NCBI GenBank assembly: GCA_002791275.1
Contig: PFWT01000009.1
Location: 146,548 to 210,547, forward strand
Origin: Candidatus Uhrbacteria bacterium CG_4_9_14_3_um_filter_41_35
Lineage (GTDB): Bacteria > Patescibacteriota > Patescibacteriia > UBA9934
Length of the DNA stretch: 64,000 bases
Direction of reading: 5' to 3'
Position 1 is the first letter of the stretch. Every line of letters starts with the position of its first letter. A program made the position numbers and the translations under genes. Positions 19,672 through 40,914 of this stretch are shown here, piece by piece. The notes under the pieces are model-generated. The model was not told the DNA's origin. It ran no database searches and saw only the letters and a list, made by a program, of their open reading frames with translations.

Positions 19672-20190
19672 TTATCTAACAGCACTAATTGCTGTTGTAT
19701 TCTCTGACTCACAAGCGCCAACTGTAAGTGTGCCGTTTGCGTTCTTTGTAAGTGTGTAACCGGTTGTAACCGCATCCCAAGTCGCAAGCCCGTTTGGACT
19801 TACAGGTACAGCTCCAAGGTAACCCTGCGTTACGAGTGTAGTTAGATCAACACCACTGGTAGCACTAGTAACATTCACATCACAGTTTGTGTTGTTAACA
19901 TTGCAAGTTGTAGTACAGGTACCGATCATATAAACGTTACCAGCGATTAGCGCAGTAATAGCTGCGTCGTAGTCGCCACCATTGTCGACCTGATCGATTT
20001 TAGCTGCGTGCAAAACCTGAGTTACATCTGAGCTTCGTCGTGCGTCTCGTGCATCTCTGAATCGAGTTGCAGGGTCAAGAGCAACGAATACAATACCCGC
20101 CAAAATCGCGATAATCACAATCACGATTAAGAGCTCGAGCAGTGTAAAACCTTGTTCTGAATCTTTTAAGTTTTTAATCTTATTAATCAT
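19672..20190 (-). CDS. type IV pilin (candidate major pilin)
   Basis: Leader followed by the G|FTLLELLIVIVIIAILAG class III signal (E at +5). Cys pairs in the C-terminal domain and a strong terminator downstream. The ORF track extends the N-terminus to 20253. Confidence 0.7.
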   Translation of the reverse strand: MINKIKNLKDSEQGFTLLELLIVIVIIAILAGIVFVALDPATRFRDARDARRSSDVTQVLHAAKIDQVDNGGDYDAAITALIAGNVYMIGTCTTTCNVNNTNCDVNVTSATSGVDLTTLVTQGYLGAVPVSPNGLATWDAVTTGYTLTKNANGTLTVGACESENTTAISAVR

Positions 20191-20255
20191 ATTTTTAATT
20201 ATATTTAAATCTATTATATCAAACTTGACGTATATATCTAACAACCTGTGCACAA

Positions 20256-21242: not shown

Positions 21243-21243
21243 A

Positions 21244-21714
21244 TTAAATTTCTTCCCAATTTGTAATTAAAACATTAATTGCATTTCCAAAATTGTTATA
21301 AACCAGAGCTGTGTTGACAACTAGATTTCTTGTTATACCCGCAACTGTTACAGCAACCGTAATAAGTCTTGTGCTTCCCCCACCAGTTACAGTAACCGTA
21401 CACACACCATTTCCGATAGTTGTAATCGTTCCACCAGTATAACCAATATTGTCCTTCAGTCTATAAATTGCCTCATCAACACAGGCTTCACCGATTTGAA
21501 TTGCCTGATGCGCCTGATCAGATTCTAGATTTAGCGAAAGTTCGTTTACACTAAATTTAGCAACAGCTAATCCAAGTGATAATGTCATTGCTAAAATTAC
21601 AACCACAACAAGTAGCGCAGCAACTCCGTGCTCATCTTTTTGGATAATCTTAAATTTATTTTTCAGGCTTTTCATCTGTTTAATTATAGAATTTTTCCTA
21701 GCGCACCACAACAC
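21244..21714 (-). CDS. PilX_N-domain minor pilin-like protein
   Basis: Hydrophobic N-segment GVAALLVVVVILAMTLSLGLAV followed by AHQAIQIGEACVDEAIYRL. An internal Met at 21675 is an alternative start. Confidence 0.45.
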   Translation of the reverse strand: MLWCARKNSIIKQMKSLKNKFKIIQKDEHGVAALLVVVVILAMTLSLGLAVAKFSVNELSLNLESDQAHQAIQIGEACVDEAIYRLKDNIGYTGGTITTIGNGVCTVTVTGGGSTRLITVAVTVAGITRNLVVNTALVYNNFGNAINVLITNWEEI

Positions 21715-22240
21715 TTGTTTGCATAGAGGTTGAGGTATTTATTAATACTCCTGATTTATCGCGCCACTCCAGTGTGAGATCTATTTTAATATTTGTTGTT
21801 CTGCCCGGAACACTTAGATCCGTGAAGACTAGACTGGTGACATTAACTAGGTCCGAACTTATGTTCATCGGCGCGCCAGCTCCCTGCTGAATGCGAACTA
21901 CACCGCCCACAACATCAAAAACTGTTGGGTCCAAACTCCCGGTATTATTCACGAGCGAAAGAACGCCGGGATTTACGCCAAAACTTGAAGTTGTGAAATT
22001 AACATCGTTTGCCGACTTAATTTCGCGCGCAATTTTTTCCATTATGAACCGACCATTTTGACTAACTTCGTGCATAGTTCTCGCCTTTTGACCGCTTTGG
22101 ACAACGCTAACAGTGAAGCCAATCATACTAGTAAAAAAGACGGAAATAATCGCAAGATATATAATCAATTCCACTAAAGTATTACCTTTTGTATTCGATC
22201 TTATCTTTTTTAGACCAGAACTTATAGCAAGAACATTCAT
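21698..22240 (-). CDS. type IV minor pilin (prepilin N-terminal domain)
   Basis: KG|NTLVELIIYLAIISVFF prepilin-type signal with a Glu at the conserved +5 position. 180 aa. Confidence 0.55.
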   Translation of the reverse strand: MNVLAISSGLKKIRSNTKGNTLVELIIYLAIISVFFTSMIGFTVSVVQSGQKARTMHEVSQNGRFIMEKIAREIKSANDVNFTTSSFGVNPGVLSLVNNTGSLDPTVFDVVGGVVRIQQGAGAPMNISSDLVNVTSLVFTDLSVPGRTTNIKIDLTLEWRDKSGVLINTSTSMQTSVVVR

Positions 22241-22241
22241 A

Positions 22242-25200
22242 TTATTTATAAGTTACGGTGATGTCATTAAATAGCGGTGGAGTAAGCGCACCTGTTGATG
22301 TAATAATCACCCGGTACTGGAAGTAGCGACCAGTTTGACCAGCCAAACTCACACCATCTGCGGTTGTGTAATCCGGTGAAAAAACTGACCAAGTACCATC
22401 AATAACCGGCGAATTTCCACTCCGCACCGCTACGGTAATTTCTGAATTAGCCGGCAAAGTTTCACTCCACGAGAGTGTGTCCCAAACATTTGAAGCAACG
22501 TCGCTGTCAAAAATTATTGATGTGTAAGTCCCGAGTCCTCCCACGGAACCAGCACCACCACCGATAATTTGCTCAAGATGCATAAAGAGTCCAGCATCAC
22601 CTACAATCCAACCATTACCCGAACTTGTCATTGAGATGTCGTTCAAATTAGTGGTAACCGGTGAAGTAAAGAGCGCCCAAGAGATGCCCTTGTACTGAAT
22701 TAAGGCTCCGGCATCCCCAACTGCCCAGCCGTCATCGAAAGCTGTTAAATTGATCGCATTAAGATTTGCAACTGTTGGTGAAGTATCCGTTGTCCAAGTT
22801 GTCCCGTTATAGATGAGGATCGTACCAGTTGCACCAACCGCCCAACCATCGGTGGCCGAAACCATATAGATATCGTTCAGTTGATTGCCAGTTGGCGATG
22901 TTACAGTGCTCCAGTTTGAACCATTGTAGTGAATAATGGTACCGCCTGCCCCCACTGCCCAAATATCGCCAGGACCAACCGCATAAACAGCCTGTAGGTT
23001 TTGTATTGTTGGTGAAGTAGTCAATACCCAATTTACACCGTTAAAATGTAAAATTATACCGCCGTTACCCACTGCCCAAGCATCCGCCGTATCTATTACA
23101 TCAACTGCGGTTAGATTGTTTACAGTTGGTGAAGACATTGTGGTCCAAACCCCCGTATCATTTTTTACAATCGTACCATTATCACCTACGGCAAAACCTG
23201 TTGTTTCATTAAAGAAATCAACCGCGTTCACGTTAACTGTTACTGGCGACGCGTCCACATCCCAAGCGGTACCAGCGTAACTATTGAGCGACCCTAGGTT
23301 GGCCACTGAGAAACCGACCGTATCTGAAACTAAATGAATACCATTGATATTTTCAGTTGTTGGGTTGTTGTAGCTAATTTTTATTGAGTCTAGGCTTGGC
23401 GTAATGCTTTGATTCAAGGTACTTAAAGTAACTTCATACTGCAGATACTGACCATTTAGCGAAGCAATTACTTCACCGTTTGGATTGGTATACGCACCAG
23501 CAAACGCTGACCAGCTACCGTCTGGTACTGGTGTTGCGCCAGTCCGAGTGTTAATCACAACATCCACTGCCCCCTGACCAATATCTTCAACCCAAGAAAT
23601 ATAATCCCAGTGAGTGTTTGGATCTAGACTGTTGATTATCGGAGAAGTGTAGGTACCGGTTAAGAAGTAAAGTCCTGTGTAGTGCACAAAGGTTGAACTC
23701 AGACCTCCGGCCCAGATATCGCTGCTATCCGCGATCGAAACTGAGTTAAGATCTGTCCCCGTTGGTGAACTCGCTTGTGTCCAAGTTAACCCGTCCCACT
23801 TTAAAATAACTCCATTGTCTCCCACAATCCAGCCATCAGTCGCCGAAACCATTTCGACATCCTGAAGCTCACTATTCGTTGGCGACGCCACATTTGACCA
23901 ACTTGTTCCGTCGTAGTGCATAATCGTGCCACTGCGACCAACTACCCAACCGTCTGTTGCAGAAATGAAATTGATAGCATTTAAGTTTTGACTCGTTGGT
24001 GTGCTCATTGAAGACCAGTTTGAACCGTTCCAATGCAGAATTCGACCACTTCGACCTGCAATATAACCATCTGTAGCCGAGATCATACTAACATCATTTA
24101 AACTACTACTGGTGCCTGAGTTAACTAAGGACCAAGAAATACCGTCATACGAAAGGATTTTTCCATTTTTTCCAACAGCCACTCCAAACGAGGAGCTGAC
24201 CATATCAACATCATAAAGTGTTTGTGAGGTTGGTGAAGTTGCAATTGTCCAGACCGAACCATTGTTTACTAAAATCTGACCCTCTTCACCCACCGCCCAA
24301 CCTTCGGTTGCTGATGCAAAATCAACTCCGTACATTTGTTTTTGTGTTGGAGAATTGATTTGCGACCAGCCATTATTTTCGTATTTAAACATTGCACCGT
24401 TTCGTCCCACAGCCCAACCAGTTGAACTATTAATCATACAAATATCTTCCACCGTATCGTTTCCAAGTTCAGCTGTGTAGTCACTCCAGTATGTTGGAAT
24501 AAAGTAGGTTGTTGCTGTCCAAACTGTACCATCATAATTTGCCACCATTCCATTTGCGCCAACCGCAAAGCCGGAAGAAGTGTTTTGCATTTTTACTCCA
24601 ATAAAATCCTCAGTCGTAAGCGTGGTAACTGTGTACCAATTACTTCCGTTATAGTGAAGTATCGTCCCTGAGTCACCAACAGCCCAAACATCATTTGTAG
24701 CAATAGCATATACGCCACGTAAATCATCATGAGTTGGTGTGTTTACACTCGACCACGAAGACCCGTTCCAGTGCCGAGCCGTGCCATTATCCCCAACAGC
24801 CCAACCGTCATTCGCCGAAATAAAGTACACATCTCTAAGTTTCTGTGAGGTGCCGCTTGAAACGTTTGACCAACTATTACCGTTCCAATGAATTATTTGA
24901 CCACTCTCACCAACAGCCCAACCATCTGTTGTTGAAAGCATATAAACTGCTGCGAAGTTTCTAGATGTTGGTGAGGAGATTTTTGACCAAGAATTGCCAT
25001 TGTACCGTAAAATTGTTCCATCCTCGCCAACTGCCATACCAAAACTTGAACTTACCATTGAAACACTTGCCAGATCTTCTGAGGTTGGCGAAGAAACCGT
25101 GCTCCAGGTTCCATTATAATTCAAAATCGTACCCGAATCACCAACCGCAAAGCCGTTATTTGAATCTATGAAATCAAGAGAATTTAAGTCACGAGTCGTT

Positions 25201-26885
25201 GGAGAAGATAAATCGATCCAATTTGTGCCGTTAAAATTTGCTATTGTACCAGAATCTCCAACACCCCAACCGCTTGTGTTACCAAGTATTTCAACACTGT
25301 TAAGATCATTTGAACCAGAGACGCCACTTGCACCTGTGCCGTCAAACAAACCAATCACCGGTATACTCGATCCCCCAACGAACCAGCCATTATTTTCGTC
25401 TAGCAGATAAACACTCTTTAGATCCTCACCAGTAACTGATGCCTGTGCTGTCCAGCTACTACCATTCCAGTGGAAAATATCCCCGTTATCACCAACCGCA
25501 ACACCAAAGTTAGCGCTCACCATTGATAAACCTCTTATATCAGGTGAACCTGAAATTTGCTGGCTAACCCACGAATTACCATTGTAAAAAATCATGGTTC
25601 CCGATCGACCTCCTGCCCAGACATGCGAGGCATCAACCGCATAAACCGTGTAAAGTCGTTGATTAATTGGATTTGATACCGAAATCCATAGAGAGCCATT
25701 CCAATTATACGTGTGCCCATTTCGATCAACGGCCCAAGCATTAGTTTCTGAAATTACTGAAACATCGTATAAATCAGAATTGGTACCAGAAGTAACCGCT
25801 GTCCAAACAGCTCCATTCCAGTGTTGAATTTCACCACCAGTTGCGACAATCCAGCCATCAGTCGGGCTTGAAAAATCTATCGCATTCAAATTTTTATTAC
25901 TTGCCGAGGGTATAGTACTCCAGCTAAGACCATTCCAGTGAAGTATTAGGCCGGAATCTCCAACCAACCAAACATCATTCACCGATTTAACATAAACTCC
26001 ATTTAAATCTGCAGTTACTCCACTTGCCACCTGAAACCAATTTGCACCATCCCACTTCAAAATTGAACCAGTATTTCCAACTGCATAGCCAAGATCTGCG
26101 GAACTCATGTGAATGTCATTTAACAAATCCGAGTTAGCAGCTGGCGGAGAAAATACTCCCCATTGTGGGGTATTGTTGAGTTCAATCGATGCTGTAGCTC
26201 CGGTTCTTGCTCGAACTGTGTCCGTGAAGGTTCCTGGATCAAAATCAAGATCGGTCGTATGAATTACCGACAGTCCTCCTCCAGGAATCCACCTGTCAAC
26301 GGCAAAGGATGTGTCTCCTGAAATTGTGAGTGATGCTGAATCGCCAGTGCCATTTATTACAATGTCCGTTGCCGTACCAGCGCTAAAATCAGTACTCGAA
26401 GTTTCGTGCCAATCAAAAACGTTCCAGTCGGTTAAATAAGTAACCGCCTGCACACTTCGCAGAGCGTTTCTGGCAGTCCAACTCACAACTGAAGTTACTT
26501 TTTTTGTACGCGGATCAATCTGCCCGCCGGTTGCCACGATATTATTATTCACATCCCGCTCAACACTTGAAATTGTAACCACACGAGTGTAAATATCAAC
26601 AATGTCATTTACACCACTAAACGCCCAGCTACCACCCGTGTTTGCCACGCCATGCGCACCGTCAATTAAGTTCAGCCAAGATTCATCGCGGATACTCCGA
26701 GCCGCTTCAAGTCCCTCCTGCGCTATAACCGTTGCCCGCACCTCTTCGTTACTGACGCCAAGCGAAACTAAACTATCAAGGAAAATTGTGCTCACAACCA
26801 AGGTTATGATACTAAAAATCGACATGGCAATAACTACTTCTGCCAAACTTTGACCTTTTTTATTTTTGAAAATTGAAGTAAACAT
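22242..26885 (-). CDS. giant prepilin-fused multi-beta-propeller protein (candidate pilus-associated adhesin)
   Basis: N-terminal KG|QSLAEVVIAMSIF prepilin signal. At least 26 tandem blades, each about 42 aa, with the motif t-SPT-x-DL-x-V-x(5)-GWAVGdsGtILhYNGsnWS, plus two copies of a roughly 90-aa non-repeat module. Translationally coupled to its flanking pilin genes. Confidence 0.85.
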   Translation of the reverse strand: MFTSIFKNKKGQSLAEVVIAMSIFSIITLVVSTIFLDSLVSLGVSNEEVRATVIAQEGLEAARSIRDESWLNLIDGAHGVANTGGSWAFSGVNDIVDIYTRVVTISSVERDVNNNIVATGGQIDPRTKKVTSVVSWTARNALRSVQAVTYLTDWNVFDWHETSSTDFSAGTATDIVINGTGDSASLTISGDTSFAVDRWIPGGGLSVIHTTDLDFDPGTFTDTVRARTGATASIELNNTPQWGVFSPPAANSDLLNDIHMSSADLGYAVGNTGSILKWDGANWFQVASGVTADLNGVYVKSVNDVWLVGDSGLILHWNGLSWSTIPSASNKNLNAIDFSSPTDGWIVATGGEIQHWNGAVWTAVTSGTNSDLYDVSVISETNAWAVDRNGHTYNWNGSLWISVSNPINQRLYTVYAVDASHVWAGGRSGTMIFYNGNSWVSQQISGSPDIRGLSMVSANFGVAVGDNGDIFHWNGSSWTAQASVTGEDLKSVYLLDENNGWFVGGSSIPVIGLFDGTGASGVSGSNDLNSVEILGNTSGWGVGDSGTIANFNGTNWIDLSSPTTRDLNSLDFIDSNNGFAVGDSGTILNYNGTWSTVSSPTSEDLASVSMVSSSFGMAVGEDGTILRYNGNSWSKISSPTSRNFAAVYMLSTTDGWAVGESGQIIHWNGNSWSNVSSGTSQKLRDVYFISANDGWAVGDNGTARHWNGSSWSSVNTPTHDDLRGVYAIATNDVWAVGDSGTILHYNGSNWYTVTTLTTEDFIGVKMQNTSSGFAVGANGMVANYDGTVWTATTYFIPTYWSDYTAELGNDTVEDICMINSSTGWAVGRNGAMFKYENNGWSQINSPTQKQMYGVDFASATEGWAVGEEGQILVNNGSVWTIATSPTSQTLYDVDMVSSSFGVAVGKNGKILSYDGISWSLVNSGTSSSLNDVSMISATDGYIAGRSGRILHWNGSNWSSMSTPTSQNLNAINFISATDGWVVGRSGTIMHYDGTSWSNVASPTNSELQDVEMVSATDGWIVGDNGVILKWDGLTWTQASSPTGTDLNSVSIADSSDIWAGGLSSTFVHYTGLYFLTGTYTSPIINSLDPNTHWDYISWVEDIGQGAVDVVINTRTGATPVPDGSWSAFAGAYTNPNGEVIASLNGQYLQYEVTLSTLNQSITPSLDSIKISYNNPTTENINGIHLVSDTVGFSVANLGSLNSYAGTAWDVDASPVTVNVNAVDFFNETTGFAVGDNGTIVKNDTGVWTTMSSPTVNNLTAVDVIDTADAWAVGNGGIILHFNGVNWVLTTSPTIQNLQAVYAVGPGDIWAVGAGGTIIHYNGSNWSTVTSPTGNQLNDIYMVSATDGWAVGATGTILIYNGTTWTTDTSPTVANLNAINLTAFDDGWAVGDAGALIQYKGISWALFTSPVTTNLNDISMTSSGNGWIVGDAGLFMHLEQIIGGGAGSVGGLGTYTSIIFDSDVASNVWDTLSWSETLPANSEITVAVRSGNSPVIDGTWSVFSPDYTTADGVSLAGQTGRYFQYRVIITSTGALTPPLFNDITVTYK

Positions 26886-27349
26886 TAGTTTCGGGTTATA
26901 GCTCCAGCTGGATTGACTAAGATTGTTTTTTTCTCCGCTGTTTCGTTTAATTCGACCGTAATCGTGGCCGGGGTCGAAGTGTTTCCGTGCGAATTATTAA
27001 ACAGCACATCTGCGCCCCCACCCTGAATTGTAATCTGAGACAAAGTTGTAGAATTTGGCAGGGTTGTTGTAACATTATCCGGAGCTCCTGGAATATAGGT
27101 AGTGCCTCGGTACAAAGTAAAATCATTAGCTGTAAAGTGCACACCCCAAACATCATTTTGACGACCATTCATAGTGTGCCACTCGGCGCGCCTCAGAGTA
27201 TCAACAACATCTGTTGAAACGTTTACTAAATCATTTCTGTTAACCGAAGAACTCATTACCAAGGCGCCAATCAAAACTATTATCGATGATAACGCGGTTA
27301 CTATCAGCGTTTCAAGTAAAGTAAAACCATGGTGATTTATGTTTTTCAT
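26885..27349 (-). CDS. type IV pseudopilin (GspH/FimT-like)
   Basis: HG|FTLLETLIVTALSSIIVLIG prepilin signal. Confidence 0.6.
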   Translation of the reverse strand: MKNINHHGFTLLETLIVTALSSIIVLIGALVMSSSVNRNDLVNVSTDVVDTLRRAEWHTMNGRQNDVWGVHFTANDFTLYRGTTYIPGAPDNVTTTLPNSTTLSQITIQGGGADVLFNNSHGNTSTPATITVELNETAEKKTILVNPAGAITRN

Positions 27350-27357
27350 AAGGATGA

Positions 27358-28512
27358 TTAAACACCCGACAAAATTGAATAAATTGGTGTCAGAATAGAC
27401 ATCGCCATAATCGCTACCACACCTCCAATAAATAGAAGCATAATCGGTTCCAAGATTGACGATAGGTTTTTTGACATCACCATCACCCGTTCTTCATAAT
27501 AATCAGCCAAAAACTCGAGTGTTGAACCTAAACTTGCAGATCTTTCACCAACCGCAACCATTCGCTGAATCATTTTTGGATATAGATCAGGGTACCGTTC
27601 AATAATTGCCGAAAATTCGCTACCGCCCGCTACCTGTTTCATCATATTCTTCACTGATTTTGCGTAAACGTAGTTTGGCATCACTCGCGAAGTAATATCG
27701 AGCGCCTCTTCGATCGCGGTTCCACTTTGCAGTAAGGTTCCAACAGTCCTACAAAAGCGAGCGCGATTGATAAGGTTTGTAAACACACCAACCACCGGGA
27801 TTGCTAAAAGTACTCTGTCAGTAATTGGACGCACCGCCTTTCGCCTTGAAAACCAAAGGAAAAACACGGTACCTCCGATTGAAGCTGGTACCACAATCGC
27901 GCCATAGGCCACGAAGAAATTTGAAACCCAGATCAAAATTCGGGTAGTAATCGGCAGTTCCACGTTCAAAGACTCGAAAATCTGGCTAACCTGTGGCAAC
28001 ACGAAAATTGCAATTCCAAAACCGAGCACAACTGCCATACTAAGTACCACGGAAGGATAAATCATAGCTGACTGCACATTTCGCTTTAAGCTAAGATCGC
28101 TCTCCATTTGTTTTGCTAAACGTTCAAGGTTTGCGTCGAGAGTCCCTGAGTTTTCTCCCACCTCCACAGCACTAATAAACGAAGCATCAAAAGTTTTCGA
28201 CTCAAATTTTAAAGCATCAGCAAAAGCTGAACCGCCCTGAACTCGACGATTTACCCGTTTTAACACCTTCTTGAGGGTCCCCACCGACTGCTCTGTGATT
28301 ACCTCAAGCGCTTCAGGCACCGAAAGACCAGCATTTAGCATAACCGCAAAGTGCTTCGAAACCATCGCTACATCGGTGGTTTTTACCTTACCTAAACTAA
28401 TTTCCGTCTTGTACCAAGGAAGTTTTCCTTCTTTTGCAACGACCCTGTTAAGGCTATTTTTTGTCGGACTATTATTCACTTTTTTTGTAATTGTTTTTGC
28501 CATATTATTCAA
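27358..28512 (-). CDS. pilC: type IV pilus platform protein PilC (GspF family)
   Basis: Two GspF-type repeats with 3 TM segments. Confidence 0.8.
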   Translation of the reverse strand: MNNMAKTITKKVNNSPTKNSLNRVVAKEGKLPWYKTEISLGKVKTTDVAMVSKHFAVMLNAGLSVPEALEVITEQSVGTLKKVLKRVNRRVQGGSAFADALKFESKTFDASFISAVEVGENSGTLDANLERLAKQMESDLSLKRNVQSAMIYPSVVLSMAVVLGFGIAIFVLPQVSQIFESLNVELPITTRILIWVSNFFVAYGAIVVPASIGGTVFFLWFSRRKAVRPITDRVLLAIPVVGVFTNLINRARFCRTVGTLLQSGTAIEEALDITSRVMPNYVYAKSVKNMMKQVAGGSEFSAIIERYPDLYPKMIQRMVAVGERSASLGSTLEFLADYYEERVMVMSKNLSSILEPIMLLFIGGVVAIMAMSILTPIYSILSGV

Positions 28513-29497
28513 TAATTCCGTCAGCTTGGAGTTGTTCTAAAACTTGTTTCATAGAAATCATTCCAAATTTTCGTCCGGTTTCGATAGCTGAACGTATAGT
28601 TGAAAGTTTGTTGTTTCTTATAGCATTCCTTACCGCCGAAGTTGAGGTTAAAATTTCCCTCGCAGCCATTCGTGTACCATCTTTCTTCATCACAAGGTGT
28701 TGCGATACAACCATTTTTAAGGCAGCTGATAGTTGAATTAAAATCTGTTGCTGCTTTGCGCCTTCAAAAACTCCCACAATTCTTTCTACAACTTCAGTGG
28801 CATTTGGCGAGTGAAGAGTTGATAAAACCAAGTGTCCAGTTTCCGCAGCTGTTAACGCTAGTTCAATAGTTTCCGGATCACGCATCTCGCCTATCACAAT
28901 TACATTCGGATCCTGCCTTAAAACGTGGCGTAAACCCGAGGCAAAAGTCTGAAAATCTGTCCCAAGCTCCCGTTGTTCAATAAGTGAATTACCTTTTTGA
29001 AAACGGTATTCAATCGGATCTTCGAGTGTAATAATGTGCTGTTTGTCAGTTTCATTGATGTGTTGAATCATTGTTGCAAGCGTAGTTGACTTTCCGGTTC
29101 CTGCCGGACCACTTAAAATAACCAGGCCACTTAGCTCACCGACAATATCTAAAATTTGCTGATCAAGTTCTATTTCTTCTGGCGTTGGCGGTTCGTTTGC
29201 AAAAATTCTTATTGAAAGCCCAAAACCGCCCGATTGTTTATGCGCATTAATTCGCAAAAATGTTTTACTCACTTCAAGACCAGTATCTACATCTCCAGTT
29301 TTCACCAATCTAGATTTTTGTTCAGCATTTAAAATTTTTCCCAGTATATTCTTTGCCTCAACCTGTGTAAAAATAGGCTTATCTATAACCGTCAGTTCAC
29401 CTTCAATTCGAAAATAAGGCGCTGATCCAACCACCAAGTGGATATCCGAGGCACCTTTCTTGAGCGCAAGTAATAGTATTTTTTTAAATTCCTCCAT
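28505..29497 (-). CDS. pilT: twitching-motility retraction ATPase PilT
   Basis: GPAGTGKSTT Walker A, VIVIGEMRD and 330-aa PilT-size ORF. Confidence 0.8.
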   Translation of the reverse strand: MEEFKKILLLALKKGASDIHLVVGSAPYFRIEGELTVIDKPIFTQVEAKNILGKILNAEQKSRLVKTGDVDTGLEVSKTFLRINAHKQSGGFGLSIRIFANEPPTPEEIELDQQILDIVGELSGLVILSGPAGTGKSTTLATMIQHINETDKQHIITLEDPIEYRFQKGNSLIEQRELGTDFQTFASGLRHVLRQDPNVIVIGEMRDPETIELALTAAETGHLVLSTLHSPNATEVVERIVGVFEGAKQQQILIQLSAALKMVVSQHLVMKKDGTRMAAREILTSTSAVRNAIRNNKLSTIRSAIETGRKFGMISMKQVLEQLQADGIIE

Positions 29498-29498
29498 A

Positions 29499-31187
29499 TT
29501 ATTCTTGAGTTACGCGCAAAACTTCTTCGAGCGTAGTTTCACCGGTTAATATTTTCTGTACCCCATCAAAAAGCATTGTGCTCATTCCCTGCTTAACCGC
29601 TATTTCTTTGACTTGATCGGCATCTTTATTACTCATTACCGCTTCTCTGATTTCATCTGTAACTGCCAAAAGTTCAAAAATTCCGGTTCGACCCTTGTAA
29701 CCTGTGTTTTTACAAATTTTACAACCCTGACCGTGAAAAACACGAATACCTGAAAGTGATTTCTTGCCGGTTACATCAGAAAAATATTTTTTTAAGTGCG
29801 GTAAATGGTTAATGGTTTTCAGTTCCTGCTCCGAAATATTCACACTTTTAATACAGTTCAAACAGATCCTTCTCACCAGTCGCTGGGCAATAACCACCAA
29901 AATTGTTGAAGAAACCAAAAAGTCTTCAACACCCATATCTTTAAGTCTTGGAAAGGCGGTTGCAGCGTCGTTTGTGTGTAAAGATGAAAAAACCAAATGC
30001 CCGGTCATCGCAGCGTTCACTGAGATATCTGCTGTTTCGCCGTCTCGAATCTCCCCCACCATAATAATGTCCGGATCCTGACGAACAATTGAACGCAATC
30101 CCTTGGCGAAAGTTAGGTTAGTTTTTGGGTTAACCTGAATCTGGCTAATACCATCAACATCATATTCAACCGGGTCTTCAATCGTGGCAATATTCACCTC
30201 GCGTTTGTTTAAAACCTTGAGCGCAGCGTAAAGCGTGGTACTTTTTCCTGAACCTGTTGGTCCAGTCACCAGGATCATACCCCAAGGTTTTTTGATAGCT
30301 TTTTTAAAAAGCTCAAAATGCGCCTCGCTTAAACCAAGATCCGTTAGGCTGAATTGACGAGTCTTCGCAGCAAGTAGTCGCATTACTGCTTTTTCACCGT
30401 TTGTGGTCGGCACAATTGACAAACGAATATCAATTTTGTCACCAAAATCGTTCGTATAGGAAATACGGCCATCCTGAGCTGCACGTTTTTCATCTGTCGC
30501 GAGTTTAGACAAAACCTTTAATCTGGTAATAACCGGGTCGTGAATTTTTTTAGGAAATTCTGCAATATCTTGCAAAATACCGTCGATTCTGAAACGAATC
30601 TGCGTAAACTCATCTTCGGGTTCAATATGAACATCACTAGTTCTAGTTTGATATGAATAATCAAAAATAGCATTAACAAGTTTTACAACAACTCCGTCCG
30701 AGTCATCGCTGTTTAAATCAGCGCCTTCGAGAATATTTTTAAAGGCAACCTTTGGATCTTTTTGAAAAAGGAATAAATTCGAAAGAATCTCACGTTCAGT
30801 TGAATAATAAAAAACCACCTCACGTCTTAAATATTTTTCAAGTAGAGCCTGTAAAGTAACGTCATGTGGGTTTGTAACTGCAAGGACTACCGAATCTTCG
30901 GTTTGTGAAATTGGCAGTAAATGTTTCTTTCGCGCAAAAGCTTCTGGAACTAAAAGAATAACATCGTCTTGTGGTTTTGTCTGTGCTGGATCGAAGTGCC
31001 GAACACCAAACCAAGACGCTACCAACTGACCAAGCTGGGCTTCGGTTAATGAACCATCTGAAACTAAAACACTGTCGATGCCTTTGGTTTTAGCACTTCG
31101 CGACTGCGCAGCTTTCATGAACTCCTCCCTTGTAACTCCACCCCCTTCAACCAGTGCCTCGTATAGTTGTTCTTTACTTAACACCAC
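29499..31187 (-). CDS. pilB: type IV pilus extension ATPase PilB (GspE family)
   Basis: GPTGSGKSTTLYA Walker A, Asp/His boxes and a C-terminal tetra-Cys motif CLNC..CKIC. Confidence 0.85.
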   Translation of the reverse strand: MVLSKEQLYEALVEGGGVTREEFMKAAQSRSAKTKGIDSVLVSDGSLTEAQLGQLVASWFGVRHFDPAQTKPQDDVILLVPEAFARKKHLLPISQTEDSVVLAVTNPHDVTLQALLEKYLRREVVFYYSTEREILSNLFLFQKDPKVAFKNILEGADLNSDDSDGVVVKLVNAIFDYSYQTRTSDVHIEPEDEFTQIRFRIDGILQDIAEFPKKIHDPVITRLKVLSKLATDEKRAAQDGRISYTNDFGDKIDIRLSIVPTTNGEKAVMRLLAAKTRQFSLTDLGLSEAHFELFKKAIKKPWGMILVTGPTGSGKSTTLYAALKVLNKREVNIATIEDPVEYDVDGISQIQVNPKTNLTFAKGLRSIVRQDPDIIMVGEIRDGETADISVNAAMTGHLVFSSLHTNDAATAFPRLKDMGVEDFLVSSTILVVIAQRLVRRICLNCIKSVNISEQELKTINHLPHLKKYFSDVTGKKSLSGIRVFHGQGCKICKNTGYKGRTGIFELLAVTDEIREAVMSNKDADQVKEIAVKQGMSTMLFDGVQKILTGETTLEEVLRVTQE

Positions 31188-31208
31188 ATGATTTTTTTAT
31201 ATTATAAC

Positions 31209-31237
31209 ATAAAAAAGTAGAGAGCCTGTGCTCTCTA
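31209..31237 (-). terminator. intrinsic terminator after response-regulator gene
   Basis: agagagc-ctgt-gctctct hairpin with a U-run on the minus strand. Confidence 0.55.
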
Positions 31238-31291
31238 TCCACTTTTTTATTTTTCTGTTTTAGTAGTCTCAATTTAAAATCTTGCCGTTGC

Positions 31292-31654
31292 CTAGATGTA
31301 AGATTTTATTTTTGCAACTACATCCTGAATTGATGCGTCTGACTTTACAATAAAATCTTTTGCACCAAGTAGTTTTGCTTTTTTAACATCTTCCTCTTGC
31401 CCTAGATTAGAAAGCACAATCACTGGAATTTTTTTAAGACTACTATCCTTTTGAATTGCCTCGAGCACGCTAAAACCGTCCAACTTAGGCATAATAAGGT
31501 CTAGTAAAACTAGCGTTGGGCTAATTTCTTTCATTTTTTTCAAACCCTCCTCTCCATTTAAAGAAAAATCCGCCTCAATTCCTTCTTTGTTTAGTTTTGT
31601 AGCATAAATCCTCGAAAGGAATTTATCATCTTCAATGATTAATACTTTGACCAT
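31292..31654 (-). CDS. single-domain response regulator (CheY-like receiver)
   Basis: IIEDD, the phospho-acceptor LLDLIMP, a KIPVIVLS block whose Ser is the conserved T/S and the conserved receiver Lys in FIVKS. Confidence 0.75.
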   Translation of the reverse strand: MVKVLIIEDDKFLSRIYATKLNKEGIEADFSLNGEEGLKKMKEISPTLVLLDLIMPKLDGFSVLEAIQKDSSLKKIPVIVLSNLGQEEDVKKAKLLGAKDFIVKSDASIQDVVAKIKSYI

Positions 31655-35015: not shown

Positions 35016-35046
35016 ACAAAAAAACCGCCAAAGGGCGGTTTTAAAA
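35016..35046. terminator. bidirectional intrinsic terminator
   Basis: aaccgcc-aaag-ggcggtt hairpin flanked by an A-run and a T-run. Confidence 0.6.
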
Positions 35047-35916
35047 TTACTCTGGTCGATACTCTCGTTTGCAGGTTAAAATCCCCTCTTTATCTGAAAC
35101 CTGTAAATCGTACACTGTGGTGCAAGACTCGATTAATGTCTTATCGTTAACTGCAGTGTCTAAAATATAATAATTCCAAGTGCTATGCCCGTCTTCACCA
35201 AAACTATTTGAAATAAATGGCAAGCCTTCTAAATAGTCAGGGATAAACTTGTAGTCAAAACTTACGATTGGCACAGAAGTTACCTGTTCAAGTTTTAGAT
35301 CCTTATAACTTGATGAAATATTATAGATTTTTAGTTCCTGTTTACCCTGTTCAGCTATCAAATAAGTATTTTTAACTCCAGAACAAATTTCAAGGACACC
35401 ATCTAAACTTTTATTGTTTGCAAGTGCCTCAATTGCGTTAAAAAATCGCTCTGGACTTTGGACTACTCCTGATATTTGCTCTGCGATATCTTGCTTTTCA
35501 AGTTCTGTAAAACTTCGCGGGTCAACTGAACCAACATAATCCTTTGCGTTTACAATACTATTGAAAGATAAACACTCAGAGTTGCGCTTTTCCTCTCTCT
35601 CGGCTCTTTTGTTTGATAAATAAGTTTTGCGATCAGGTCCTGTACTTTCCTTAAAGTCAACTTTTGAAATAACCTGCGTAAAAGGATTCACCACTGCAAC
35701 ATTACTACTAAACACGGCCTCTGAAGCAATATATTTAAGTTCCTCCTCCAGCTGATTCTTCTGTTCGTCAACCGTTGGTGGGTTCCAGTAAAGTGCGTTC
35801 ATGACTACAATGAACATTAGAAAAATAATAAACAGAATCATGAACAGAATCGACAAAACTGTTCCGTTAAACTCGTGCTCGTGCTCAGGTGTGTGCTCGT
35901 GTTTATTTATTTTCAT
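35047..35916 (-). CDS. membrane-anchored hypothetical protein (His-rich N-tail, single TM, extracytoplasmic domain)
   Basis: HEHTPEHEHE N-tail and one TM helix. The C-terminal domain is weakly similar to the two paralogs downstream. Confidence 0.55.
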   Translation of the reverse strand: MKINKHEHTPEHEHEFNGTVLSILFMILFIIFLMFIVVMNALYWNPPTVDEQKNQLEEELKYIASEAVFSSNVAVVNPFTQVISKVDFKESTGPDRKTYLSNKRAEREEKRNSECLSFNSIVNAKDYVGSVDPRSFTELEKQDIAEQISGVVQSPERFFNAIEALANNKSLDGVLEICSGVKNTYLIAEQGKQELKIYNISSSYKDLKLEQVTSVPIVSFDYKFIPDYLEGLPFISNSFGEDGHSTWNYYILDTAVNDKTLIESCTTVYDLQVSDKEGILTCKREYRPE

Positions 35917-35919
35917 ATT

Positions 35920-36735
35920 TTAGTTTAAACACATCTCGCGATTTTCTTTAAAACTATACGTAATATCACCATTTTCCAAAACTGATTTCTGGTAAACACC
36001 CACCAATATACACGAATTATTCACCCAGTTTATAGAGACTTTTTTAAATGGATCATTAAAATCAGGTTCCCTATCCGTAAGCGACTCATCATTTTTAAGT
36101 TCGCCTACAACTGTTATGTTACCTTTGTTAAAATTATACACCAAAATCTGGTTTTCTAAATAATCATTATATAGTTTATCTGAAATATCTGAGCTAAACA
36201 CCACTGTCTGACTTTGATCTGGAGACAAAATGCCGGACTGACTTCTAAGACCAGTTTCAGAAACATCACCAGTTTTTAGGTTAACCTCCGACACTGCAGA
36301 GAAAAAATCTGCTTCATCTCGAATTAAAGAAACGTAAATTCGTCCATCAAAACCAACCTGGGGCACAGCTACTAAACTTGAAATTCCTGGCCAATCAAGC
36401 GCTAATTCGGATTCAAGTCCAGTTTTTCTGTCTATGCTAACCACTTTAGGCTTTCCGTCTAGCCCTCTAAACGAAGTCGTAAAAAGTGGGATCTGCGACT
36501 CTTTGCTGTTCATTAATTTCTCAGCATTATTTAAATCGTTTTGCAGTGCAATAATCTCATTTTTAGCGGTATCAATTTCAGTGTACTTAACCTTCGTCAC
36601 GTAAACTGCCAAAATAAGTAATACAGAGACAATGCCAAACATACTCAAAGATAACCCAGTGTAAAATCTACACCTTACTGGACACTTCATTTTTACAAAT
36701 GTCTTATTTCGAGTTGTTTGCATTCCCTCCTCCAT
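35920..36735 (-). CDS. membrane-anchored protein, paralog pair member (Cys-rich N-tail + TM + coiled coil + PD40-like domain)
   Basis: MKCPVRCRF N-tail and a TM helix. ENQILVYNF and VAVPQVGFDGRIYV align with ENQILLFDL and FAVPKLDYDGKIF of the adjacent gene. Confidence 0.6.
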   Translation of the reverse strand: MEEGMQTTRNKTFVKMKCPVRCRFYTGLSLSMFGIVSVLLILAVYVTKVKYTEIDTAKNEIIALQNDLNNAEKLMNSKESQIPLFTTSFRGLDGKPKVVSIDRKTGLESELALDWPGISSLVAVPQVGFDGRIYVSLIRDEADFFSAVSEVNLKTGDVSETGLRSQSGILSPDQSQTVVFSSDISDKLYNDYLENQILVYNFNKGNITVVGELKNDESLTDREPDFNDPFKKVSINWVNNSCILVGVYQKSVLENGDITYSFKENREMCLN

Positions 36736-36739
36736 AAAA

Positions 36740-37585
36740 TTACTCTATACAAAATTCGCGCCATTCTTTATGCCGCCTGACCTGCACTGTAGCTCCTGGC
36801 TCAGCACCTTCACTCGTGTCTGGCTCGTTACTTACTGCGTAGATACGGACATTTGCGCACGTTGGGCTTAACCAATGCACCTGAATATCTCGTAAATTCG
36901 CAAAACGAGCATTTGGCGCTGCAGCGTCCAAATCTTCACCATCACGATAAGTTCCCAAAACCGAAACCTTTTCAGTAACTAAATCAAAAAGCAAAATCTG
37001 ATTTTCCTTGTAATCAACCTTTAAAACATTGTCCAAAAACTCCACCCCAGTAACCAAATATCTTTCACTTGGCGAAACTGTATTATCGGTTGCGTTTGAA
37101 GCAACACTTATTCCCGTTGTTTTACTTATCTCAGTTGCTACGTCAAAAACGTTTACCTCTCTTGACGGCAAATCGCCATCAACTGGCCCCATAACTGTAA
37201 AAATTTTTCCATCGTAATCTAATTTTGGCACCGCAAAAACTACCCTATTGCCAGTAATAATCTCTTTTGATTCGTTAAGTTCTGGGTCATACATTAAAAT
37301 TCCGCTTGAATAACCAGTTGCTTCGTCTACTGCATTGTAAAAAAGTGGGGTTGGACCTGGTAAGTTATCTATTTCAACGTTTTTGAGCCCCAGATCTAAC
37401 TCTAGCCCCTGAACCTGAGTTTCTAGTTCCTTCACTTTACTCGCACTTCCAGTATTTTGAAACCAAAGAACAAGTGAACTTATTCCTGCCACTACAAAAA
37501 GGGCAATGAACGAAAAACCGATTTTTTTCCAGCCGGTCCCACACTTAGGACAAGCTTGCGACGTTGGTGTACCCAGTGTTGCCAT
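36740..37585 (-). CDS. membrane-anchored protein, paralog of 35920..36735
   Basis: CPKCGTGW N-tail, TM helix and coiled coil. Clear collinear similarity to the neighbouring gene. Confidence 0.6.
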   Translation of the reverse strand: MATLGTPTSQACPKCGTGWKKIGFSFIALFVVAGISSLVLWFQNTGSASKVKELETQVQGLELDLGLKNVEIDNLPGPTPLFYNAVDEATGYSSGILMYDPELNESKEIITGNRVVFAVPKLDYDGKIFTVMGPVDGDLPSREVNVFDVATEISKTTGISVASNATDNTVSPSERYLVTGVEFLDNVLKVDYKENQILLFDLVTEKVSVLGTYRDGEDLDAAAPNARFANLRDIQVHWLSPTCANVRIYAVSNEPDTSEGAEPGATVQVRRHKEWREFCIE

Positions 37586-37688
37586 ATTATTTTTTTAAAT
37601 TAAAATCTTTGCAAAGGTTCAGTTAACTTAAAATTAATTGAACAAAAGTTTGCTTTGTTTCTACCTCCTTTTATTCTGCATGTTTTTA

Positions 37689-39317
37689 TTATACCAGAGG
37701 AACGCCCGACATTTCAGGTGGCTGTGGAATACCCATAATTTTGAGCATCGTCGGCGCTACATCAGCCAGCATACCAATCGGTGGCATTAAACTTAAATCA
37801 CCATTTGGCACATCACCCGCCATACTTGCCTGACCTTCAAACTGATTCCCGATAATAAACAATGGGATCGGGTTCGTACTATGTTCCTTATCAATATCAC
37901 CTGTTTGTAAATTCAAAACTTCCTCACCATTTCCATGGTCAGCGGTAATCAAAACCACTCCATCGTGTTTTAGAACTTCGTCCACCACTCTTCCTACAGC
38001 TCCATCCAAAAATTCATGAGCTTTAATAGTTGCCTCAACGTTTCCGGTATGCGCCACCATATCAGAGTTCGCAAAGTTCATAATAATTGCGTCGTAGTTA
38101 TTGGTTTTTATTTCTTTAATAACTCGTTCAGATAATTCACCCGCCGACATTTCCGGTTGTTGATCATAGGATTCAACCTTTGGTGAAGGAATAATTACCC
38201 TATCTTCATTAGGAAAAGCTGTTTCGATTAAGCCATTAAAGAAAAAGGTAACGTGAGCGTACTTTTCCGTTTCAGCAATGTGCAATTGAACCATTCCAGC
38301 GTTTGAAAGCACTTCAGCTAAACAATTTTTTATAAGCACAGGCGGATACGCAACCTCTACTGGCAACCCCTTTTCGTACTCCATCATAGTAACAAAAACC
38401 AAATCCTGAATATAGATTCGCTGGAACTTGTCGAAAGACGGCAGTGTAAAAGCCTTTGTTATCTGCCGGGATCTATCTGGTCTAAAGTTAAAATTAATCA
38501 CTGAATCGCCTGATTTTATAGTTGCGACCGGCTGACCATTTTTGGTAATCACTGTTGGCACGATCTCCTCGTCGTAAACCTCTTTCGCGTAAGACGCCTT
38601 TATTGCTTCAATCGGATCCTCAGCCATTGAAACTGATTGCCCAAGCACCATTGCGTTGTAAGCTTTCTCCTCTCGATCCCAGCGGTTATCCCGATCCATC
38701 GCGTAATACCGACCCGAAAGTGAGGCAATTCTACCGATGCCAATTTCCTGAATCTTCCCCTGTAGCTCATTAAGATATTCAAGTCCAGAATTATACAAAC
38801 TATCACGGCCGTCCATAAAACAGTGGATCGCGACGTCTTTCACCCCCTGATCTTTCGCAAGTTGCATTAGTGCGTAACAGTGAATATTATAGCCGTGCAC
38901 TTTTCCTGAAGACATAATCCCCATAAGGTGCAAGGTCCCCCCAGACTTTTTTGCGTGATCAATCGCTTTCAAAAACGCCTCGTTTTCAAAAAACGACCTG
39001 TCTTTGATTGCACGCTCAATCCTAGGTAATGACTGATAAAACACTCGCCCAGTTCCGGCTGTAAGATGCCCAACCTCAGAGTTACCCATTTCCCCCCACA
39101 TAAGTCCAACCGTTTCACCAGCCGCCCGAATTGTCATCACTGGGTAGCGTTTCTTAAATTCATCAAATCTTGGCATTTTTGCCCGAGTTACCGCGTTACC
39201 TTCACCGTCTGGCGCAATTCCAAAACCGTCGAGCATCATAAGCACAACCGGCCGTGGTCTCGCCGGGCTTGCAGTAATTGGCTGGATAATTTGAGGCTGA
39301 TTTTGTTCATCTGACAT
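37689..39317 (-). CDS. gpmI: 2,3-bisphosphoglycerate-independent phosphoglycerate mutase
   Basis: LMMLDGFG, GNSEVGHL and DGRD motifs. The start is probably MSDEQNQ (the ORF track extends to 39359). Confidence 0.85.
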   Translation of the reverse strand: MSDEQNQPQIIQPITASPARPRPVVLMMLDGFGIAPDGEGNAVTRAKMPRFDEFKKRYPVMTIRAAGETVGLMWGEMGNSEVGHLTAGTGRVFYQSLPRIERAIKDRSFFENEAFLKAIDHAKKSGGTLHLMGIMSSGKVHGYNIHCYALMQLAKDQGVKDVAIHCFMDGRDSLYNSGLEYLNELQGKIQEIGIGRIASLSGRYYAMDRDNRWDREEKAYNAMVLGQSVSMAEDPIEAIKASYAKEVYDEEIVPTVITKNGQPVATIKSGDSVINFNFRPDRSRQITKAFTLPSFDKFQRIYIQDLVFVTMMEYEKGLPVEVAYPPVLIKNCLAEVLSNAGMVQLHIAETEKYAHVTFFFNGLIETAFPNEDRVIIPSPKVESYDQQPEMSAGELSERVIKEIKTNNYDAIIMNFANSDMVAHTGNVEATIKAHEFLDGAVGRVVDEVLKHDGVVLITADHGNGEEVLNLQTGDIDKEHSTNPIPLFIIGNQFEGQASMAGDVPNGDLSLMPPIGMLADVAPTMLKIMGIPQPPEMSGVPLV

Positions 39318-39421
39318 AGTGAAACTATTATACCAGATTCTGAAGAAAATTAACCTCAAAAGTCAACGGTGAGTTTTGATTATTAACAGACAAATCTCAA
39401 AGTATCGAGTTCTTAATATAC

Positions 39422-39450
39422 AAAAAAACTGCCCGAAGGCAGTTTTATTA
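39422..39450. terminator. bidirectional intrinsic terminator
   Basis: aactgcc-cgaa-ggcagtt hairpin followed by a T-rich tract. Confidence 0.55.
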
Positions 39451-39456
39451 AATAGA

Positions 39457-40104
39457 TTATTGAATCATTTTCATGATTTTACCTGAAAAAGGTCCGTACC
39501 ACGTTTCTATTAAACCTATATCAGCAGAACCAAGTGCCGGTCTACCTTCAACTAATATGTAAAATGGCAAGTTCGTTTCTAAATTCCCTTCAGTTCCTAA
39601 ATCTTTAGAAAGGTAAACAAACACACCTGCTGAAAGTCCATCTGGTGCAATGTTTACATCATTCATACCAAAGTGTGCTCTTGAATAATTAACAGGCACA
39701 CTGGTTGCTAAATATTTATCCTTTGTTGCTGGACTTAATATCTGCATAACTATATCGTCGAGATTTGTTACCTCAACAGCTGTCCATTCACCCATCATTC
39801 CATTTCTATCACCAACTTCCACTGAACCCATCGCAGTCTGGCTCGAATTTCCCGATATCCGATCTCGAACGTTTATCATATTTTCAAAATCACCTCTGTC
39901 CATCATACCAAAACCATCACGGCTTAGATCACGATCTCCTAATATACTTACGAACATCATTACGGACATGAATAGCATCATAATTAAAATAACACCTGCG
40001 ACTGCCATTAAACTTTTGTGTTCACAATGTCCGCACTCCCCCACTGATGATCTTTTATGTTCATTCATATTTTTATATTTCATATTATTTACATTGTACT
40101 TCAT
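39457..40104 (-). CDS. membrane-anchored hypothetical protein (CGHCEH N-tail + TM)
   Basis: 215-aa ORF with a single TM helix. Confidence 0.5.
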   Translation of the reverse strand: MKYNVNNMKYKNMNEHKRSSVGECGHCEHKSLMAVAGVILIMMLFMSVMMFVSILGDRDLSRDGFGMMDRGDFENMINVRDRISGNSSQTAMGSVEVGDRNGMMGEWTAVEVTNLDDIVMQILSPATKDKYLATSVPVNYSRAHFGMNDVNIAPDGLSAGVFVYLSKDLGTEGNLETNLPFYILVEGRPALGSADIGLIETWYGPFSGKIMKMIQ

Positions 40105-40209: not shown

Positions 40210-40558
40210 AAAAAAGACGCCGTCAGCAACAAGGCTGATCGGCGAAGGGGCGATGGAATTCGTGAAGGTGGGACTAAACATCCACATACAGCTTTTTTAC
40301 GGCGTGTATTGAACAGTTTAAAGGATTAGCCACTCGAGTTTACTCGCTGACCGGTCGACTTCACTGTTCTTGACAGATTGGCCCCTTTTCAGAAGCAGGT
40401 TGAAATGCACAACCCTGGTCTTTTAATTAGTCAGTTTGTTTGTCTGCTCGCCGTAGAGTTACGGTGTACAGGAAACGATGGCGGAGGTTTGCCGAAGCAA
40501 TTTGTTATACCATCCTGACCAAATACCAATCTAGTCCACCTTCACGAACTCATCGCAG
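40210..40558 (-). ncRNA. candidate structured RNA of about 350 nt (unknown family; either a stand-alone ncRNA or a long cis-regulatory leader)
   Basis: 540-bp region with no ORF and higher GC. TTGACA-17-TATCTT promoter on the minus strand. A 17-bp terminal helix pairs 40262-40278 with 40532-40548, with internal hairpins including a UUCG tetraloop. The 3' end is an intrinsic terminator at 40218-40248 (cgccgatcagc-cttgtt-gctgacggcg) followed by a U-run. Confidence 0.55.
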
Positions 40559-40564
40559 TTTGCG

Positions 40565-40593
40565 TAAGATAACAGATCAATCCATATTTGTCA
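40565..40593 (-). promoter_or_regulatory. sigma70-like promoter for the candidate RNA
   Basis: On the minus strand, TTGACA (40588-40593), a 17-nt spacer, then TATCTT (40565-40570). Confidence 0.5.
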
Positions 40594-40683
40594 AATATAA
40601 TTAGCTAACCTTCAATTAATATTTATGAATAAAAAAATGACTATTCAAGGTCATTAGCAGTGCATTTCTACGATTTCGTCTCT

Positions 40684-40914
40684 TCAAAAGTTTGGTCTAA
40701 ACCACTCCGTATAAACGTAAACGGCAATATCAAGCTCCCGGTTTAGTAGCTTTTTTGGATCTAATTCGGTCAAATAGTATTTAGAAAGCATATACATATA
40801 GTACATGTTCAAAAGAATGGCGATAACCGCAATCAAGACCATAACACTACGGTGATAAAACGTCAGATACCAAAGATGGTACAAATTCGAAGAGGTAAAA
40901 AACAAAAGGAGCAA
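40684..40914 (-). CDS. small hydrophobic hypothetical protein (doubtful)
   Basis: 76-aa ORF in an AT-rich stretch. No other support. Confidence 0.2.
   Translation of the reverse strand: MLLLFFTSSNLYHLWYLTFYHRSVMVLIAVIAILLNMYYMYMLSKYYLTELDPKKLLNRELDIAVYVYTEWFRPNF

Follow-up and report, generated by a model that had tools for sequence, protein, structure and literature searches.

The closest described relatives of the proteins reported here are the PD40 (PF07676) β-propellers, among them TolB, which is soluble in the periplasm and combines six blades with an N-terminal α/β domain. A propeller need not be closed within one chain: the three-blade Keap1-456 fragment (8pks), the designed SAKe propellers, and the Ralstonia RSL lectin trimer are examples of assembly from partial-propeller chains, and a three-blade unit needs oligomerization to close. 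Metal sites can also be assembled between chains in a two-plus-two arrangement of ligands, as in the Rad50 zinc hook (CxxC) and the CD4/CD8-Lck zinc clasp. We analyzed a 64,000-nucleotide stretch of contig PFWT01000009.1 (the window) from Candidatus Uhrbacteria bacterium CG_4_9_14_3_um_filter_41_35 that carries four genes, here called A to D (Table 1), each encoding a protein with a Cys/His-containing N-terminal tail and one transmembrane (TM) helix. Two of them, B and C, belong to a family whose extracytoplasmic domain is predicted to be a fragment of a PD40-type propeller.

The candidate phyla radiation (CPR), or Patescibacteria, is rich in unannotated single-pass surface proteins that are presumed to mediate an episymbiotic lifestyle, and 76 of 106 CPR-enriched families contain at least one TM helix, mostly with poor functional annotation (PMC6744442). 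For one such "hypothetical protein" family, which lies outside Pfam and NCBIfam, our analysis proposes a fold and a topology, together with a conserved disulfide and a His/Cys motif that recurs next to the membrane, and it opens the hypotheses that the propeller is completed by dimerization and that the tails form a metal clasp. It establishes no new biological principle; because unannotated single-TM families are common in the CPR, we regard the result as useful annotation of a modestly interesting variant rather than as a surprise.

The four open reading frames (ORFs) lie where an initial annotation of the window had placed them, all on the minus strand, and the motifs that it quoted are all present. 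Its proposal that B and C are tandem paralogs holds, as the two proteins align over ~237 residues at 22% identity (BLASTP E = 3e-11) and have in common the blocks AVPQ/K-x-x-[YF]DG[RK]I[FY], SP[SD], ENQIL, W..xxC, and KE.RE.C. Word-index homology searches with C and B recovered only the queries themselves; a HMMER search of 1.84 billion representatives with a profile of the B/C ectodomain returned 44 matches, ~36 of which are proteins of 225 to 320 amino acids (aa) aligned across the whole C-terminal domain. Four long repeat proteins (P0010, P0024, P0030, and P0043), in which one blade-length stretch matched repeatedly and the domains were otherwise unrelated, were rejected as repeat-level or spurious matches, and a Luteolibacter locus (L006) was left out because its match was a 28-aa motif only. 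Pfam and NCBIfam scans of A to D gave nothing significant, none of the 37 family members matched any Pfam family, and the PD40 model itself matched 0 of the 37 at E values up to 0.1. The members are all named "hypothetical protein" in NCBI and UniRef, from Candidatus Uhrbacteria, and a scan of metagenome contigs with a subset of the family gave no match. As judged from these sequence comparisons, the B/C family is a previously undescribed and uncurated family of Patescibacteria that can be defined as a new domain family.

The fold of the ectodomain was approached through structure prediction and profile comparison. An AlphaFold2 (AF2) model of C, based on the family alignment, has a mean predicted local distance difference test (pLDDT) score of 84.5, mostly exceeding 90 in the ectodomain, and consists of a continuous helix at residues 26 to 66, comprising the TM segment and a stalk, and 13 β-strands between residues 81 and 279. 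β-Propellers were the only matches in a fold search with this model, and the best length-normalized structural match was the three-blade Keap1-456 fragment (TMt ~0.5). The family profile aligns with TolB blades (E = 0.003; "alSpDqtkiaavyd...eivvwdLltge" against "AFSPDGTKLAFAL...LYVMDLASGQ"), so that the PD40/TolB-like motifs first noticed in the paralog pair are real. Aligned with itself by hhalign, the profile shows a register shift of ~50 residues (E = 0.001), in agreement with the three φxDxxTGE motifs of the alignment. The predicted domain has the repeated four-stranded blades of ~40 to 50 aa and the SPDG-type signature of PD40 proteins; at ~200 aa and 13 strands, it does not make a closed six- or seven-blade propeller in one chain. 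Two Cys residues near the C terminus, Cys243 and Cys279 in C, are present as a pair in 36 of 37 sequences and are replaced together in the remaining one (P0034), a joint loss that is expected if they form a disulfide. Besides these near-invariant Cys residues, the Gly of YDGRIF and a Trp are invariant in the family alignment, and the Pro of PFxY, the A-x-P of AVPQ, and the Ser of SPDQT are near-invariant. From secondary structure and the repeat analysis, we conclude that the B/C ectodomain consists of three PD40-type blades and a disulfide-stapled C-terminal β-hairpin.

B and C thus resemble TolB in their blade signature (SPDQTK-φφφ...φφVWDLxTGE, compared with SPDGTKLAF...LYVMDLASGQ in TolB) and in being extracytoplasmic. 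They differ from it in having approximately three blades plus the disulfide hairpin instead of six, in lacking the α/β domain, in being anchored by an N-terminal TM helix, and in belonging to a monoderm-like CPR host without a Tol-Pal system; the juxtamembrane His/Cys motif of the family also sets it apart from TolB and other PD40 proteins. An identification as a TolB orthologue was rejected, since the model of C has no N-terminal TolA-binding α/β domain and no tolQRA or pal gene is present in the neighborhood.

Each of the four proteins has a single hydrophobic segment, located in its N-terminal region, with a TM helix of ~19 to 21 aa, and in B the flanking charge is strongly biased, with 6 Lys or Arg residues in the tail versus 1 after the TM helix. 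In two family members (P0005 and P0033), the tail and TM helix are replaced by lipoprotein-type signal peptides, which indicates that the conserved domain is extracytoplasmic. By all of the sequence features considered, B and C are type II (N-in, C-out) signal-anchor proteins, and given this topology and the PD40/TolB-like domain, the earlier suggestion of surface proteins is reasonable for them. The common architecture that had been assigned to all four proteins survives in part: a Cys/His tail and one TM helix occur in each, while a coiled coil is supported only as a helical stalk in C (AF2 helix at residues 26 to 66), and D has no such stalk. In one family subgroup (P0007, P0012, P0020, and P0039; locus L004, 10001..10825), the TM helix contains a conserved Glu and a Gly-Tyr pair in the motif LVxE[TS]xxLGYVV, which points to specific intramembrane contacts beyond anchoring; B and C lack this motif in the family alignment (A2).

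The tails, which are 19 to 33 aa long, contain Cys12 and Cys15 in C (CPKCG), Cys18 and Cys22 in B (CPVRC), His6, His8, His12, and His14 in A (HxHTPEHEHE), and Cys24, His26, Cys27, and His29 in D (CGHCEH). At the residue frequencies of the window proteome (0.66% Cys and 1.67% His), the chance probability of each tail is 0.008 for C, 0.014 for B, 0.0002 for A, and 0.001 for D, and none of 11 other N-terminally anchored proteins of the window has two or more Cys residues in its tail. At least two His residues occur in the 14 residues before the TM helix in 16 of 35 homologs, compared with a chance expectation of ~0.02 per protein, for sequences that are not phylogenetically independent. These His residues typically follow the pattern HxH(x)G (as in MHKHTG-F and TPHKHHGA-L), His making up only ~1% of the ectodomains, and at the equivalent position B has CxxxC and C has CxxC. 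The tail of A, HxHTPEHEHEFNG, is similar to the "H-D-TP-H-K-H-H-G" tails found in one family subgroup, the ectodomain being unrelated. The Cys/His tails that the initial annotation had singled out are therefore nonrandom, and the juxtamembrane motif is a real and recurrent feature of these sequences and a putative metal-binding site. A zinc ribbon (e.g., PF13240) was rejected because a single two-ligand knuckle is all that each tail provides; upstream extension of the ORFs is impossible, and there is no Pfam match.

Genes C, B, and A are separated by gaps of only 4 nucleotides (nt; C-B) and 3 nt (B-A), and a hairpin and T-run directly follow the stop codon of A, an arrangement that looks like a single operon closed by an intrinsic terminator. 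A promoter-like site located at the gpmI 3' end could drive transcription of this unit, judged by its match to the consensus. A further hairpin follows D, and this gene looks like a separate transcription unit, upstream of gpmI.

Taking these observations together, we lean toward the reading, which we hold to be probable though far from certain, that C-B-A is a three-gene operon of N-in single-pass envelope proteins in which B and C act as propeller-fragment binding scaffolds, possibly as dimers. Each B/C unit would run from a cytoplasmic two-ligand His/Cys tail through a signal-anchor TM helix and a helical stalk to a three-blade extracytoplasmic domain, which, by analogy with the PD40 propellers of TolB and S9 peptidases, would most likely serve as a nonenzymatic binding platform at the outer face of the membrane. 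Since three blades cannot close a propeller, dimerization would be the most economical mechanism, with the stalks bringing two chains together into a six-blade pseudo-propeller; the pair could be a homodimer in relatives with a single copy and possibly a C/B heterodimer here. Two juxtamembrane motifs would then join to give a four-ligand metal site. The comparison with the Rad50 hook and the Lck clasp is an analogy only, based on two ligands per chain (CxxC, CxxxC, or HxH) beside a dimerizing helix or an anchor. It differs in that half of the B/C family lacks the motif and in that metal binding and dimerization are only proposed for it; likewise, the known partial-propeller assemblies are soluble or designed, whereas B and C are natural and membrane anchored, and their oligomerization is a proposal.

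Several observations weigh against this reading. Approximately half of the family members, including the closest relative of B (P0003), have no His/Cys motif in the tail, so that the tail must be dispensable rather than essential to the function of the domain, and the N-tail of the C model is of low confidence (pLDDT < 50). TM-scores to full propellers are only ~0.3, with high root mean square deviations, and the geometry is thus unlike that of a canonical closed propeller; the count of three blades derives from secondary structure, repeat analysis, and fold-search matches and not from coordinates. Finally, as detailed below, the association with cell wall genes is confined to one clade.

A different ligand and role are proposed if B and C are seen as rapidly evolving adhesins or as proteins through which an episymbiotic CPR cell interacts with its host, in which case the propeller fragment would bind a ligand on the host surface, and the C/B duplication and the orphans A and D would be products of a diversifying surface proteome; in other respects this explanation, which we regard as possible but rather unlikely, overlaps with the scaffold reading. 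The proteins are extracytoplasmic, and a complete set of type IV pilus (T4P) genes is clustered on the same strand at a distance of ~4 kb. Among the families enriched in the CPR, most are membrane or surface proteins that lack annotation and are tied to cell-cell interaction (PMC6744442). The lineage-specific character of the C/B duplication and of the two orphan neighbors also fits: tblastn searches with all family members found one copy per locus in every relative examined among the fetched loci, and the family is in tandem only in this organism, so that the comparison of copy number across relatives called for by the initial annotation identifies C and B as a lineage-specific tandem duplication. 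Against an adhesin, strong purifying selection acts on A and B, as judged by comparison with a sister organism (L010), with ratios of nonsynonymous to synonymous substitution (dN/dS) of ~0.05 to 0.15, and the single-copy, syntenic state of the family in relatives looks more like housekeeping than like an arms race. For B the ratio is ~0.15, and for A dN is 0.10 with dS saturated, values that mark both as real, constrained genes.

Gene order raises a second alternative, namely, that B and C are accessories of envelope biogenesis that work with the PAP2 phosphatase, the MltG/YceG lytic transglycosylase, and the division genes mraZ-rsmH-ftsL, for example, as a positioning scaffold for peptidoglycan enzymes, comparable to TolB in its relation to Pal. 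In four relatives (L002, L004, L005, and L008), the order mraZ-rsmH-ftsL-gpmI-(cca)-X-(HhH-GPD, nth)-PAP2-mltG is retained, X being the family gene, and in L008 it continues with DUF2207, a response regulator gene, pilB, pilC, and a pilin gene, exactly as in the window. This synteny may be mere inheritance among close relatives, and a terminator separates A from PAP2. More distant members reside in unrelated contexts, beside genes for a nickel superoxide dismutase (Ni-SOD), dnaK-dnaJ, or a 2-hydroxyacid dehydrogenase, so that the linkage to PAP2 and mltG is clade-level synteny confined to the Uhrbacteria-like clade and provides no robust guilt by association. We consider a role as an envelope accessory improbable. 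Relatives have either a cca (tRNA nucleotidyltransferase) gene or a TM ORF of 64 aa in the interval from gpmI to the family gene; neither is present here. One of these loci, L002 (CAYJQH010000002.1), is titled "uncultured Gammaproteobacteria bacterium"; this label is probably wrong, because its synteny (mraZ-rsmH-ftsL-gpmI-cca-X-PAP2-mltG-uvrD) is of the Patescibacteria type and matches that of the Uhrbacteria loci.

The nearby pilus genes, together with the residues at the tail-helix junction, led us to consider whether the N-tails are prepilin-type (class III) leaders cut after a conserved Gly, B and C being pseudopilin-like subunits with a propeller head and the His residues a feature of the leader. 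Many members have ...HxHxG|F right before the helix (for example, MHKHTG|FIIAI; the corresponding sites are KKIG|FSF in C and YTG|LSL in B), the major pilin of the window has the leader MKNINHHG|FTLLE, and the long N-terminal helix of the AF2 model would suit a pilin. The N_methyl model (PF07963), on the other hand, matches the four genuine pilins of the window and none of A to D at E values up to 1, and Glu does not occur at +5 in any family member. A subgroup shows G-A-L-P or lacks the Gly altogether, two members are lipoproteins, and the family is also found away from pilus genes. Pseudopilin-like subunits are therefore very unlikely.

The scaffold reading of B and C can itself be extended, to the idea that they are Patescibacteria-specific half-propellers in which a metal clasp and the stalk pair two chains into a six-blade TolB-like surface propeller. 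In this organism, duplication would have turned a homodimer with a His4 site into a C/B heterodimer with a Cys4 site, and the co-transcribed orphan A would be a partner specific to the lineage. We would give this extended scheme little credence as a whole.

The resemblance to zinc-binding anti-sigma (ZAS) factors or transmembrane signaling sensors put forward in the initial annotation is a matter of generic layout, with a Cys/His cytoplasmic N terminus, one TM helix, and an extracytoplasmic domain, as in the membrane-bound members of the group to which RsrA, RslA, and ChrR belong (zf-HC2, PF13490), and it is already contradicted to the point of being hardly credible: tails of 19 to 33 aa cannot hold the ~80- to 90-aa anti-sigma helical domain, the HxxxCxxC motif is missing (in SQACPKCG, KCPVRCRF, and ECGHCEH, position -4 relative to the first Cys is not occupied by His), no Pfam model of an anti-sigma domain, zf-HC2 and RskA included, matches at E values up to 1, the tail is unstructured and of low confidence in the C model, numerous homologs either have no such motif or are lipoproteins, and the partner extracytoplasmic function (ECF) sigma factor that had been proposed as a check does not appear among the Pfam-annotated neighbors within ~10 kb on either side, which include no Sigma70_r2/r4 protein and where the upstream genes are gpmI and ftsL. 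None of A to D is an anti-sigma factor.

The initial annotation had taken A for a more distant third copy of the paralog pair, and the comparisons do not bear this out. BLASTP between A and B/C gave E values of 0.17 or worse, and an hhalign comparison of A with the family aligned only the TM helix and stalk. The two ectodomains, compared with each other by hhalign in local, low-mact, and global modes, gave no signal (E = 0.4). An AF2 model of A from a two-sequence alignment reached a pLDDT of only 36.8, and the secondary structure of A, with helices at residues 103 to 168 followed by strands, is unlike the all-β domain of the family; nothing supports a fold shared with B and C. The word-index search found one nonself homolog of A, 83% identical and from the sister organism L010, where the gene again sits between a B-like gene and PAP2 and where the His motif and all four ectodomain Cys residues are kept. 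D, which had been grouped with the others as sharing their architecture and coiled coil, is likewise unrelated: its BLASTP similarity to B/C is not significant and the likeness is one of generic architecture. D has no relatives in the fetched loci or the metagenome-contig scan and no Pfam or NCBIfam family, and neither A nor D found a match in PDB sequence searches or in tblastn searches of all fetched loci of relatives. By sequence, A and D are lineage-restricted orphans unrelated to B/C, that is, fast-evolving or orphan surface proteins with the same generic topology. D is Met-rich around and after its TM helix (residues ~40 to 100; MMLFMSVMMFV, GMMDRGDFENM, and GMMGEW), and as a lead from composition only, these runs and the CGHCEH tail are reminiscent of Cu(I)-binding Met motifs.

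The gene models bear on the tails. A perfect Shine-Dalgarno sequence, GGAGGAGGG, directly precedes the second ATG of B, and the true start is therefore probably Met5 at 36723, giving the 267-aa protein that is called on 18 or more contigs, the majority; the 240-aa NCBI call would truncate B into its TM helix. C has no alternative start upstream of its TM helix, and the CPKCG tail accordingly belongs to the protein. The maximal ORF of gpmI begins at a TTG 14 codons 5' of the Met at which other assemblies start the protein (542 aa), and this downstream ATG is probably the real start. Exact-sequence look-up identified A to D in records PIZ54031-33 and PJA46632-36 from Candidatus Uhrbacteria metagenome-assembled genomes, all named "hypothetical protein," and the same gene arrangement occurs on >20 contigs from several groundwater-type metagenomes.

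Table 1. Features of the A-to-D locus and its surroundings (positions in the window)
Feature	Coordinates	Strand	Size	Description
Type IV pilus cluster	19672..31654	minus		Complete; few kb downstream of C-B-A, same strand
Intrinsic-terminator-like hairpin + T-run	35021..35042	minus		Immediately after A stop codon; closes C-B-A unit
Gene A	35047..35916	minus	289 aa	Orphan bitopic protein; His-rich tail HxHTPEHEHEFNGT, one TM helix, α+β ectodomain with 4 conserved Cys
Gene B	35920..36735	minus	271 aa (maximal ORF)	Paralog of C; N-tail with CPVRC, TM helix ~28-46, ectodomain 78-271
Gene C	36740..37585	minus	281 aa	Member of B/C family; N-tail 1-21 (CPKCG), TM helix 22-42, helical stalk to ~66, ectodomain 76-281 (three predicted PD40-like blades + Cys243/Cys279 hairpin)
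Promoter-like site	37688..37717	minus		CTGAAA-18-TATAAT, extended TG; 3' end of gpmI; consensus match only
gpmI	37689..39359	minus		Between D and C
Intrinsic-terminator-like hairpin	39425..39446	minus		Immediately after D
Gene D	39457..40104	minus	215 aa	Orphan bitopic protein, CGHCEH tail
Structured RNA	40215..40565	minus	~330 nt	Between ftsL and D
Structured RNA promoter	40594..40566	minus		TTGACA-17-TATCTT with TG; near-consensus
Small ORF	40684..40914	minus	76 aa (maximal)	One hydrophobic helix; between ftsL and structured RNA

The cluster does lie directly downstream of the candidate structured RNA, as first noted, but a link beyond position is not borne out, since the RNA is equipped with a promoter and a terminator of its own and D ends at a separate terminator. 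The RNA has a closing stem of ~30 bp and a minimum free energy of -127 kcal/mol (z = -6.8 versus shuffles), and an Rfam search with it gave no match. All contigs in which it turned up belong to this organism; in the relatives, the interval between ftsL and gpmI leaves too little room for it. The small ORF next to it is called with 52 aa on JGI/ENA contigs. On the other side of the locus, the T4P cluster encodes a response regulator, PilB, a PilT-like ATPase, PilC, a GspH-like major pilin, minor pilins, and PilM, together with a 1547-aa pilin-like giant that contains propeller repeats of the BNR/YCF48 type.

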